Made by a program: the position numbers and the translations under genes. This document shows, piece by piece, positions 834 through 32,025 of a stretch of 33,848 nt of DNA. How positions within the stretch are numbered: the first letter of the stretch is position 1; every line of letters begins with the position of its first letter. A model generated the notes under the pieces. That model did no database searches. It had not been told where the DNA came from and worked only from the letters and a program-made list of their open reading frames with translations. The stretch spans positions 1 to 33,848 of the IMG/VR virus record IMGVR_UViG_3300014208_000095; one strand, given 5' to 3'. The stretch is from a virus. Its lineage: Duplodnaviria > Caudoviricetes.

Positions 834-956
834 ATGAGAATTGTGTCAATAATAGTCGGTGGATTATTTTTACTCGGGTTATTTTTGGCGATGAAAGAAA
901 AACGATTGCCGAAGTATAAGAAGAGTGAAATTGATACGACGTACGGGAAGTGGTAA
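834..956 (+). CDS. Small single-TM peptide with basic tail, 40 aa (type I toxin-like architecture)
   Basis: Translated by hand: MRIVSIIVGGLFLLGLFLAMKEKRLPKYKKSEIDTTYGKW. Below the ORF-track cutoff. Confidence 0.5.
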   Translation: MRIVSIIVGGLFLLGLFLAMKEKRLPKYKKSEIDTTYGKW

Positions 957-957
957 G

Positions 958-1000
958 TGTGGATAAGTGGCTTGAACAGGTGGATTGACTGTGATAAGAT
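958..1000 (+). promoter_or_regulatory. DnaA box plus sigma70-type promoter (TTGAAC-17 bp-TAAGAT, extended -10 TG)
   Basis: TGTGGATAA 958-966; TTGAAC 972-977; TG 992-993; TAAGAT 995-1000. The predicted start near 1007 coincides with the first hairpin of the structured RNA. Confidence 0.6.
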
Positions 1001-1006
1001 ATAGGT

Positions 1007-1176
1007 GCTCGAAAGAGCGGACAACTAACAAGGGTTTTGTTTACAAATTAGAATATTAACAAAAGCTTTTTAGGAAAACTCTTCGGGAAGTTACTTCGGT
1101 AATTTCCTTAGAGAAATCTAGGGGCAGTGGGAGCAATCCCCCTTCCCGACTAGTTGTCCTGAGAAGCTTTTTTTTT
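1007..1176 (+). ncRNA. Unclassified highly structured RNA or leader (four-way junction, four canonical tetraloops, 3' U-tract)
   Basis: GCUC-GAAA-GAGC; 15-bp stem 1061-1075/1157-1171 with 2 G-U pairs; stem 1083-1090/1142-1149 enclosing UUAC-UUCG-GUAA, UAGA-GAAA-UCUA and GGGA-GCAA-UCCC; T9 at 1168-1176. Confidence 0.75.
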
Positions 1177-1228
1177 GTTCTTTTACAATACACCGTGAAA
1201 TTAAACTGACGGAAGGAGGTGCATGTGC

Positions 1229-1351
1229 ATGACTCAATTCAAGCCAAGAAGTTCTGTTACTGGAAGATTTGTAAAATCCTGGGTAGAAAAGAAATACCCT
1301 AAGACGACGTATGTTGATATGATCCGTTATCCAAAGAAAAAACAGGCTTAG
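1229..1351 (+). CDS. Small basic protein, 40 aa, 'RS..TGRFV......P.TT' family of unknown function
   Basis: AAGGAGGT SD 8 nt before ATG; MTQFKPRSSVTGRFVKSWVEKKYPKTTYVDMIRYPKKKQA. Resembles, from memory, a widespread family of ~45-aa proteins. Confidence 0.75.
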   Translation: MTQFKPRSSVTGRFVKSWVEKKYPKTTYVDMIRYPKKKQA

Positions 1352-1399
1352 GACCTGTTAATTCATAACGCTTTTTACTCACCTCACGGTGTATTGCGA
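1333..1399 (-). ncRNA. Putative ~65-nt antisense sRNA convergent with the 40-aa gene
   Basis: Bounded by the promoter at 1434-1406 and a hairpin plus U-tract (AACAGG-UCCUAAG-CCUGUU-UUUUCUUU, 1359-1333). Confidence 0.5.
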
Positions 1400-1405
1400 G
1401 AGAAA

Positions 1406-1434
1406 AATGTACCATTTTGGTACTGATTTGTCAA
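1406..1434 (-). promoter_or_regulatory. sigma70 promoter TTGACA-17 bp-TACATT with extended -10 and an overlapping palindrome
   Basis: TTGACA 1434-1429; TG-G-TACATT 1414-1406; palindrome GTACCA-TTT-TGGTAC 1409-1423. Confidence 0.65.
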
Positions 1435-28634: not shown

Positions 28635-30395
28635 TTAGTCTCGATTAGTTAACTCGTATTCGTATTCGTTCATGCCACCTAATGAATCTCTGTAGGCTTC
28701 TACCTCTCCTGCTTTGATTTGTCCTTTATATATTTTATCGTTAACAACAAATTCTTTTATCATGCGAGCGATTTCAAATTCCCCCTCTCCCATAATAGGA
28801 TCTTCTTCTTCAGCCGTTATACTATCTACACAAATAAGGTTAGCTACAATCTGAGATGAATGTTCAACGGCGTAATAAATAGCTTCAGCAGGATCAATAA
28901 CATCTTCACCAATATCTATTCCTCCATCAATACTTGATTGAATTTGCTCATAAGGAGCTAAAAGAGTTGATTTTAATATATTGTCTTCTGATAGTCCTTC
29001 GGATATTTCTTTCAAACAGAGTCCTCCACCTTTCACATAGCCACCTCTTAAAGCTGCTTTACATGCGTATACAGCGTCTTCAATCTTCAATTTGGTATAA
29101 AGTGAATTAGCCTGGGTACTGTCTCCGACTCGTATAACTCCTACAGCAGAAGCCATTGAGGCGATACGTCGTCTAAGTAAATTCTTGAATTGTTCTTGAC
29201 GTGTTTCTTCTAACTGACTTTTTAAAACCTCAATACGTTCTTCTACCTGTGATTTTTGCTCTGCTATCACAGCATCCTTTTGTTCACTTACTTGTTTTAG
29301 TTGTTTTATATGAGTTCCACCACCGCCAGTTGCGATGGCATCTTCCTTATTTTCAGTGTCCTTCACAACCATTTTTTCAACAAATCCTAAATCTAATTCT
29401 GTAATGGATGAAAGACTATCTCCTTTGTTTTTATCGATAAATTTAGCTCCAAAATATATAGAAACATCTTCTAGTTGTTCAGTTCTAAGTGAAGGAATAA
29501 GCACAGGGAACAAATCATAGTTTCCTTTCGTTACAACTACCCCTCCATCTTTTCCAGATACTACATTAAAACTTGCTTTGTAAAGTTGATTTAAAACATC
29601 ATTTGAAAAACTTGGAGCCAAAATAGCTATCTTAGGATGCTTGTTTAACAAGGGGTTCAGAATATTTGCCAATTGTATTGAATTATCTAGTGCGTAATTT
29701 GTAACAATAACATCGCTATCTTTGATAATCATTTCAAACTTATCTGGCTTGTTTACAAACCCTTTCGCAGCTGTCTTAGCAGGAAAACGCATACCCTTAA
29801 TCACCTCGGTCTCAATTTCTCCCTTATACCCTTCAACAACATCAATAAATCCATCAACTCCAACTTCCCATGCCATCCCTGCAACAAGTTTACCTAGCTT
29901 TTCATCCTTTACTGAAATGGTAGCTATTTTCTCTAATTCTACTAAAGATTCAACTTTTTTCGCCATTTCTTTAATCTTTTCTTTAACTTTTTCAGCAGAT
30001 TCTAAAATTTTCCTCTTCAAAGCGACAACTCCAACCTTACCTCCTACTCCTATCGCACTAAAATTTTTATCTAAAATACCTGATACTTCATTAAAAAGTT
30101 TTCCTCCAAGAATTGCTGTACACGTAGTTCCATCTCCAACTTTTTCAACCGTTCGCTTGCAGCCCTCTCGAAAAGTCTGAGCAACCATTCTCACAAATTG
30201 GTCTTTTGGTTCTTGACACTCAGCAACTGTTACTCCATCATCCGTCATTCGGTTCCCTCTGTTCATTGTACGATATAATAATGCACTTCTTCCTTCAGGT
30301 CCAAACGTAGCTCTAACTGGTTCATATATGGCATTTACACCATTTTTTAGTGCTTCACGAGCTTTTTTACCTGATATTGTTCGAGTTGTTCGCAT
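28635..30395 (-). CDS. groEL: Phage-encoded GroEL-like chaperonin, 586 aa
   Basis: TFGPEGR, TDDGVTVA, VGDGTT, RRIASMASAVGVIRVG, KIEDAVYACKAA, GGG, VIDPA; no GGM tail. Confidence 0.92.
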   Translation of the reverse strand: MRTTRTISGKKAREALKNGVNAIYEPVRATFGPEGRSALLYRTMNRGNRMTDDGVTVAECQEPKDQFVRMVAQTFREGCKRTVEKVGDGTTCTAILGGKLFNEVSGILDKNFSAIGVGGKVGVVALKRKILESAEKVKEKIKEMAKKVESLVELEKIATISVKDEKLGKLVAGMAWEVGVDGFIDVVEGYKGEIETEVIKGMRFPAKTAAKGFVNKPDKFEMIIKDSDVIVTNYALDNSIQLANILNPLLNKHPKIAILAPSFSNDVLNQLYKASFNVVSGKDGGVVVTKGNYDLFPVLIPSLRTEQLEDVSIYFGAKFIDKNKGDSLSSITELDLGFVEKMVVKDTENKEDAIATGGGGTHIKQLKQVSEQKDAVIAEQKSQVEERIEVLKSQLEETRQEQFKNLLRRRIASMASAVGVIRVGDSTQANSLYTKLKIEDAVYACKAALRGGYVKGGGLCLKEISEGLSEDNILKSTLLAPYEQIQSSIDGGIDIGEDVIDPAEAIYYAVEHSSQIVANLICVDSITAEEEDPIMGEGEFEIARMIKEFVVNDKIYKGQIKAGEVEAYRDSLGGMNEYEYELTNRD

Positions 30396-31785: not shown

Positions 31786-32025
31786 TTATTTCCAGGTGAT
31801 AGCTTTCACCGCCCACATCTGAGCTGTTTGAGCTTCTGTAATTGCGACAGAAAATAGTCTACCTTTCTCACCTTGCCCTGCGTCCAATCTCCCTTCGTTA
31901 CAAAGGTCGATGATTTGAGCATATAATGCTTTGACTTTATCCACCAAAGCATTACCCCCTGGATTAAACGTCAGACCGACTGCTTTCTCACCATAGGTGA
32001 GTTCACGTGTTTCTTGTCCTTCCAT
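31786..32025 (-). CDS. Acb2/Tad1-like helical-hairpin protein, 79 aa (candidate immune-signal sponge)
   Basis: GEKAVGLTFNP...RLFSVAITEAQTAQMWAVKAITW resembles the R..[SA].A.T..[EQ].A.MW hairpin of the Acb2/Tad1 family. Confidence 0.6.
   Translation of the reverse strand: MEGQETRELTYGEKAVGLTFNPGGNALVDKVKALYAQIIDLCNEGRLDAGQGEKGRLFSVAITEAQTAQMWAVKAITWK

Follow-up and report, generated by a model that had tools for sequence, protein, structure and literature searches.

A mobile two-state leader RNA, likely a transcription attenuator, upstream of unrelated small genes in phage and bacterial DNA

Our analysis of the window, by which we mean the whole 33.8-kb virus record that was studied, points to a real, uncatalogued and mobile two-state leader RNA at positions 1007-1176. 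Comparison with five homologues showed that two helices (P1 and B), the 3' strand that they share, the fixed register between them and a weak spot in B opposite P1 are all conserved. From this comparison and from folding models we consider it reasonably likely that the RNA is a transcription attenuator, in which an antiterminator containing P1 (fold A) would compete with a terminator built on stem B (fold B). As it stands in front of two unrelated microproteins and also of a tRNA-like gene, the switch appears to be a cargo-independent control part carried by transposons and a phage. Its comparative signature consists of one strand with two partners, both of them covarying, and a terminator weakened at one fixed position, and it draws attention to three small, uncharacterised products that it seems worthwhile to keep in check.

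The RNA element in the window

A sequence-only reading of this DNA had described four tetraloops, a four-way junction, a 15-bp basal stem with G-U pairs and a U9 tail, and all of these are present in the sequence and in the predicted fold. The tetraloops are GAAA (1011-1014), C-UUCG-G (1094-1099), GAAA (1113-1116) and GCAA (1133-1136); the basal stem pairs 1061-1075 with 1157-1171, includes two U-G pairs and has the four-way junction above it, and the first four U's of the U9 tract are paired within it. The minimum free energy of 1007-1176 is -60.4 kcal/mol (z -5.34), and none of 200 shuffled sequences was as stable. The perfect complementarity reported between 1019-1027 and 1151-1159 is exact, and a complement of that length was reached in 23 of 5000 shuffled upstream regions. 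The overlap claimed between 1151-1159 and the basal stem amounts to only 3 nt of the 15-bp part, but the stem continues past an A-G mismatch with four more pairs (1077-1080 with 1152-1155), so that seven of the nine nucleotides are paired in B and an eighth lies opposite the mismatch. The parts of the element are as follows:

972-1000, plus strand: predicted sigma-70-type promoter, TTGAAC (972-977), 17 bp, TG-n-TAAGAT (995-1000), read by eye
1007-1018, plus strand: 5' hairpin H0 with GAAA tetraloop, from the fold; two of its three pairs have double changes
1019-1027, plus strand: P1 5' strand, predicted antiterminator, pairs with 1151-1159 (exact complement, covariation)
1030-1069, plus strand: P2 of fold A, 1030-1041 with 1058-1069, which would mask the lower 5' arm of B (predicted fold only)
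1061-1080, plus strand: stem B (predicted terminator), 5' arm; the upper portion repeats the P1 5' strand imperfectly
1085-1147, plus strand: variable apex; in fold B a four-way junction bearing UUCG, GAAA and GCAA hairpins, which fold A rearranges
1151-1171, plus strand: shared 3' strand, partner of the P1 5' strand (fold A) or of the B 5' arm (fold B)
1168-1176, plus strand: U9 tract, predicted termination site, from the sequence
1211-1221, plus strand: Shine-Dalgarno-like sequence, from the sequence

The start of the element had been placed at a predicted transcription start site. The promoter listed above supports this when read by eye, but it falls under the threshold of our consensus promoter scan (8 of 12 matches vs 9), which did not list it; a -10-like hexamer stands at a similar distance from the 5' hairpin in all five homologues. 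The boxA-like motif placed at the end of the element is there as a 13-mer at 1176-1188, where the U-tract ends, but the role that the name implies found no support, as all 13 positions match only in the window, 10 in L098 and 8-9 elsewhere. The statement that the RNA belongs to no known class agrees with our Rfam searches, which gave no match at the gathering score in the window (best E-value 2.7 or worse within 1-1900) and, with Rfam 15, none over the RNA at E<=1 in L005, L093 and L098.

Homologues and conserved anatomy

We found six members, the window and five homologues: one metagenome contig (L005) and four Paceibacteria-group genomes (L093, L098, L154 and L169). L005 and L093, the latter a Candidatus Paceibacteria genome, were reached via a close subfamily of the 40-aa peptide that is encoded downstream of the RNA. 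When the L093 cassette was compared by BLAST with 165 genomes of its family, 8 matched, and two of these proved informative: L098 carries the RNA together with another ORF, and L097 carries the 40-aa ORF and no RNA. The entry to L098 was a 35-nt BLAST match at the promoter and the 5' hairpin. When a covariance model based on the window and L093 was run on 93 sources, it picked up L098 (40.6 bits) and L005 (25.9 bits), and refined models that used B and H0 only added L154, out of 151 family genomes, and L169, out of 150 order genomes; P1 pairing played no part in finding any member. Because L098 and L154 share P1 and B, the six correspond to about five independent members.

The RNA family is rare, with four genomes in overlapping samples of incomplete assemblies. 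Model searches of 150 phylum, 150 class and 21 further genomes gave no further members, and none of 73 viral loci of the wider peptide family (87 less duplicates) scored above 15 bits with the model from the window and L093. A BLAST search of 980-1430 against phages returned 10 short chance matches, none above 14% coverage. Searches via the peptide or a 365-aa neighbour confirmed no relatives in viral contigs and found none by alignment in genome contigs, and alignment of the peptide against 401 class genomes returned G001 and one partial match within a long ORF. Twelve weak model matches (L155-L160, L162-L164 and L170-L172) proved by eye to be plain hairpins without P1, H0 or the promoter layout, and were rejected. 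The same was done with two identical stretches that fitted the P1 inverted-repeat pattern in viral contigs and had no other feature of the element, with 43 stretches that fitted the B-stem pattern in viral contigs (all after folding), and with the B-stem matches L107 and L108 in the 401 genomes. Separately, the predicted N-terminal extension of P0003 resembles the translation of window 1168-1221, that is, of the U-tract and leader, and hints at a further member.

All six members have the same order of parts: a -10 box, H0, the P1 5' strand, a P2-like segment, the 5' arm of B, a variable apex, the shared 3' strand and a U-rich tract. P1 has 9 perfect pairs in the window, L005 and L154, 10 in L098 and 11 in L093, lengths that were reached by 23, 14, 34, 5 and 1 of 5000 shuffles, respectively; in L169 it has 10 pairs and one bulge, which none of 2000 shuffles matched. 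In the family as in the window, the upper arm of B repeats the P1 5' strand imperfectly, and the distance from the end of the P1 3' strand to the anchor G of B is 7 nt in five of the six and 6 nt in L098. At P1 position 4, B has a mismatch in five members and G-U wobbles in L169, and five columns below this site a purine-purine mismatch is found in five of the six. Stem B is about 19-24 bp long and its mismatches are fixed.

In a five-sequence alignment that was fitted to B and in which the P1 strand of L005 is misplaced, 93% of the cells of fold B are paired and 21 of 31 pairs, counted over the whole fold, show double changes; for P1 the values are 97% and 6 of 9 pairs. None of 500 shuffles, of a kind that related sequences can beat, reached the values of either helix, and slid controls had at most 52% of cells paired. 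The five homologues, with compensatory changes in both helices, thus bear out the proposal that two folds compete just before the U-tract. The apex is multi-hairpin in the window, L005 and L093 and a 6-nt loop in L098, L154 and L169; invariant columns occur only in H0 and the base of B, and between members the interior of fold A differs by about 60 nt in length. An arm that masks the 5' strand of B is predicted by folding in every homologue, and its sequence differs among them. The loop of H0 is longer in four homologues, where it contains GAAACAA, able to pair later with the U-rich tract. This tract is strong in the window (U9), L093, L098 and L169 (U8) and broken in L005 and L154.

The attenuator reading and its rivals

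Two mutually exclusive conserved helices that share one strand are expected of an attenuator, and all six members carry them between a -10 box and a small cargo gene, the promoters being predicted. We propose that in the growing RNA P2 would form first and P1 next, so that both arms of B would be masked and read-through into the cargo gene allowed; if the 5' strands were blocked, or had time to be outcompeted, stem B would take shape and the polymerase would stop at the U-tract, with the fixed weak spot in B tuning the balance between A and B. L169, with 130 nt, is a natural minimal version of the element, and the exact competing strands make an in vitro test straightforward.

Fold A is predicted to form before fold B. 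Folding of growing prefixes of the window transcript gave P1 a probability of about 1 to base 1166 and of 0 from base 1170, as stem B replaces it. Model energies, calculated with the last 8 nt unpaired to mimic a paused complex, were for A and B at the U-tract -56.6/-56.5 kcal/mol in the window, -60.3/-55.1 in L005, -61.9/-58.3 in L093, -41.5/-42.9 in L098, -52.7/-42.1 in L154 and -39.8/-41.3 in L169, so that the folds differ by at most 5.2 kcal/mol in five of the six and A is ahead by 10.6 in L154. Termination may be weak in L005 and L154 because of their broken U-tracts, and in L154 also because of this lead of A. After read-through, A wins in L005, L093, L098 and L154, where H0 opens and pairs with the U-tract, and B wins in the window (-65.3 vs -57.7) and narrowly in L169.

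In the window and L169 the final minimum is thus fold B, which would also suit a small RNA that acts on its own, is 130-190 nt long and ends at the U-tract, with fold A as a conserved intermediate or second functional state and the cargo expressed by leak-through. The stable tetraloop hairpins in the apex of three members and the persistence of the RNA while its cargo varies are consistent with such an RNA, as is the tRNA-like gene of L169, which begins directly after U8 and whose 5' processing would release the same RNA. We nevertheless hold it to be unlikely, since the apex is missing in three of the six and its sequence is not conserved, the conserved parts being the switching strands, and since every member has a cargo gene downstream and A is the final fold in four.

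The attenuator reading itself has to accommodate the shape of B. Ordinary intrinsic terminators have loops of 3-8 nt; B has a multi-hairpin apex in three members, and the terminator scan of the window did not call it. Our control set of ordinary terminators yielded only 4 hairpins, too small a number for use.

Overlap of P1 with the terminator and balanced energies are typical of transcriptional riboswitches. Both are seen here, and the sequence-only reading had called the element riboswitch- or attenuator-like; in a riboswitch, P1 would be the switching helix of a metabolite or ion sensor. The phage moreover encodes an Acb2/Tad1 nucleotide-sponge domain, which suggests that nucleotide signalling is relevant to it. 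The comparison does not favour this idea: conserved junction nucleotides are lacking, three of the six members have no four-way junction, and, over the six sequences, the interior of fold A varies as described above with invariant columns confined to H0 and the base of B. Nor is there an Rfam riboswitch match in the window, L005, L093 or L098, or a common metabolic theme in the cargo. We regard a riboswitch as very unlikely, and a metabolite trigger likewise as unlikely because junction nucleotides and everything else inside fold A lack conservation.

For the attenuator we infer instead a trigger that blocks the 5' antiterminator strands during transcription, which may be an RNA, perhaps one encoded in trans, a protein or elongation speed. 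We found no conserved upstream or leader-peptide ORF; among these five members, an AUG within the switch is absent from the window, L005 and L098 and present only in L093 and L154. The scan called no minus-strand promoter inside the window's switch, and duplexes between the convergent RNA described below and the leader, examined at three loci, were weak and inconsistent.

Cargo genes, known systems and mobile context

The cargo is a 40-aa basic peptide in the window, L005 and L093, an unrelated 53-aa peptide in L098 and L154, and a tRNA-like gene in L169. The features of the window downstream of the switch, and the other cargo genes, are:

1175-1198, plus strand: leader arm including the boxA-like 13-mer, complementary to 1384-1407 (24 nt, 83%)
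1229-1351, plus strand: ORF of the 40-aa basic peptide, RS-x-x-TG-x-FV ... P-x-T, of a widespread unnamed family
1335-1434, minus strand: predicted convergent antisense RNA, promoter 1434-1406, terminator 1359-1341, by scan
1384-1407, plus strand: 3' arm complementary to 1175-1198
L098 1709-1870, plus strand, and L154 1296-1457, minus strand: 53-aa peptide with His-Cys-His...Cys-x-His, conserved in both
L169 1406-1501, minus strand: tRNA-like gene immediately downstream of the switch; its variable arm is long and its anticodon loop irregular

The family of the 40-aa peptide comprised 400 proteins at E<=0.01 among 694 candidates. The peptide had no match in Pfam, PHROG, NCBIfam or PADLOC; its model (pLDDT 90) is strand-helix-strand, fold searches gave a best Z of 2.9 and nothing at E<=0.001. 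Atlas look-ups returned unnamed clusters at 0.87 or lower, or no usable match. A wider RS-x-x-TG-x-F[VI] microprotein family was seen at 87 viral loci (L006-L092), with two-repeat forms of 63-72 aa; it has no Pfam entry, a literature search of the motif strings gave no match, and its neighbours varied, with no constant partner among 121 ORFs. The 53-aa peptide has a D-x-x-T-G turn like that of the 40-aa family and matches no family; two relatives were found, and the codon differences number 6 synonymous and 14 non-synonymous. ARAGORN left the tRNA-like gene of L169 without an anticodon assignment, and about 55 nt downstream of this gene 16 nt exactly complementary to its variable arm could fold back on it and inactivate the gene. 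Upstream of the RNA in the window, 834-956 (plus strand) is a second 40-aa ORF with a hydrophobic N-terminal segment, a basic tail and two hairpins upstream, and without a family match.

A small, basic peptide that is predicted to fold invites a comparison with lambda N: it could bind the tetraloop apex, with the boxA-like site 3' of the U-tract in the window recruiting Nus factors, and the multi-hairpin apex does occur in exactly the three members that encode it. We judge such feedback highly improbable. Three of the six members have the RNA without the peptide, L097 and all 73 viral loci searched have the peptide without the RNA, the apex sequence is not conserved, and the boxA-like match falls to 8-10 of 13 at varying offsets in the homologues. 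Because RNA and peptide occur apart, the peptide cannot be a general trigger of the attenuator either.

We predict the convergent RNA because a minus-strand -10 box and a terminator at the 3' end of the ORF occur at the five peptide loci; in L005 the minus-strand terminator was called by scan, and L093, L097, L098 and L154 show a similar layout by eye. The duplex of 1175-1198 with 1384-1407 beats 300 of 300 shuffles in the window and is not significant in the five homologues. Both features bear on a post-transcriptional switch, as in type I toxin messages, in which duplexes (B, or P0 plus P1) would set processing by RNase III or another enzyme, stability or translation. The length of B with its fixed mismatches and the tie that fold A makes between the 5' end and the U-tract after read-through in four of the six would fit this, together with the 24-nt duplex in the window and the convergent layout at the five loci. 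Perfect U8-U9 tracts directly 3' of B in the window and L169, a leader duplex that is significant in one member of six and a ribosome-binding region outside both folds argue against it, and we rate it as quite unlikely. In combination with the attenuator that we prefer, the convergent antisense RNA at the peptide loci would hold down a small cargo that may be harmful, a property suggested by the layered layout and by analogy.

The RNA showed the defining features of no named family that we tested, and by analogy it would work like known terminator/antiterminator attenuators. In the plasmid attenuators pT181 and pIP501, antiterminator and terminator folds are mutually exclusive. They are controlled by antisense RNA and are named in a section of PMC3834814. 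They resemble our element as ligand-free leaders on mobile DNA with exclusive folds and read-through as the predicted default; unlike them, it has no cis antisense gene that we could find opposite the leader, its cargo is a small peptide or a tRNA-like gene and not a replication initiator, and its terminator may bear a multi-hairpin apex. The overlap of antiterminator and terminator strands before the U-tract is shared with the TRAP, PyrR and LicT/BglG attenuators treated in passages of PMC7430163, but here there is no repeated or conserved protein-binding sequence, linked regulator gene or Rfam match. The type I system bsrG/SR4, as presented in part of PMC3834814, likewise has a long leader with structure, a small ORF under a promoter of its own, a place on mobile or prophage DNA and an RNA convergent at the 3' end, which is predicted in our case; it differs in that our peptide is basic and hydrophilic, a conserved attenuator lies upstream and one member has no ORF. 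In C. difficile prophages, according to the passages of PMC11477304 on the subject, a riboswitch precedes the antitoxin and not the toxin. In the open literature that we searched we found no description of this RNA, nor of attenuators or structured RNA motifs in candidate-phyla bacteria.

The label of a phage RNA given by the sequence-only reading is too narrow, as four of the six members lie in bacterial genomes, mostly inside IS1595 elements. The cassette is found between 24-bp terminal repeats together with an IS1595-type transposase in G001, G426 and G429, with an 8-bp flanking duplication in G001, and G635 has by eye one repeat-like end and a partial transposase; three copies are thus inside IS1595 elements and the fourth probably is as well. 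No IS1595 terminal repeats were found in the window or L005. The element of G001 contains a further gene:

L093 2075-2163, plus strand: tRNA-like gene, anticodon UAU, variable arm apparently long, in the IS1595 element of G001

By its sequence this gene is possibly an allo-tRNA. In passages of PMC5389517, irregular tRNAs whose anticodon is UAU are connected with transposons and with toxin-antitoxin systems, and two variants are stated to have killed E. coli. The cargo of L169, with its long variable arm and irregular anticodon loop, and the UAU gene of G001 are both like allo-tRNAs; unlike L169, the allo-tRNAs in these passages are described with no upstream switch. A broader proposal, which we put forward as speculative and rather unlikely, is an RNA-gated abortive-infection or addiction module, in which a portable ligand-free switch of a new class, on IS1595 transposons and phages of Patescibacteria, would arm interchangeable toxic cargo (two unrelated microproteins or an aberrant tRNA) and be flipped, through a sensing input of a kind not yet described, by infection or stress acting on transcription.

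Terminase, capsid, tail-like and GroEL genes are present in the window, whose genes are nearly all on the minus strand. The element sits in a short plus-strand island, with a palindrome at about 95-122 on one side and, on the other, a peptidase-like ORF and a small membrane ORF as the last genes of the minus strand. Groundwater DNA runs contain the window, and a DNA run of a second study has 987-1223 unchanged; no RNA run with the window was listed in the sequencing-run look-up. The palindrome has two 11-bp arms and a 6-bp core, occurs with 2-6 differences in many unrelated contigs of three runs, and marks the point at which the source contig breaks. We take it to be a dif/Xer-like site, and because of this resemblance dif is a possible integration site of the phage; a search of 5 Paceibacteria-group genomes did not find the dif-like pattern. 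The Acb2/Tad1 hairpin domain, that of a nucleotide-sponge anti-defence protein, lies at 31786-32025 on the minus strand (E 1.9e-11), and a GroEL-like chaperonin is encoded at 28635-30395, also on the minus strand, just upstream of the terminase genes. Three 9-mers at 440-448, 958-966 and 1500-1508 are DnaA-box-like, and two of them adjoin predicted promoters, including that of the RNA described here.
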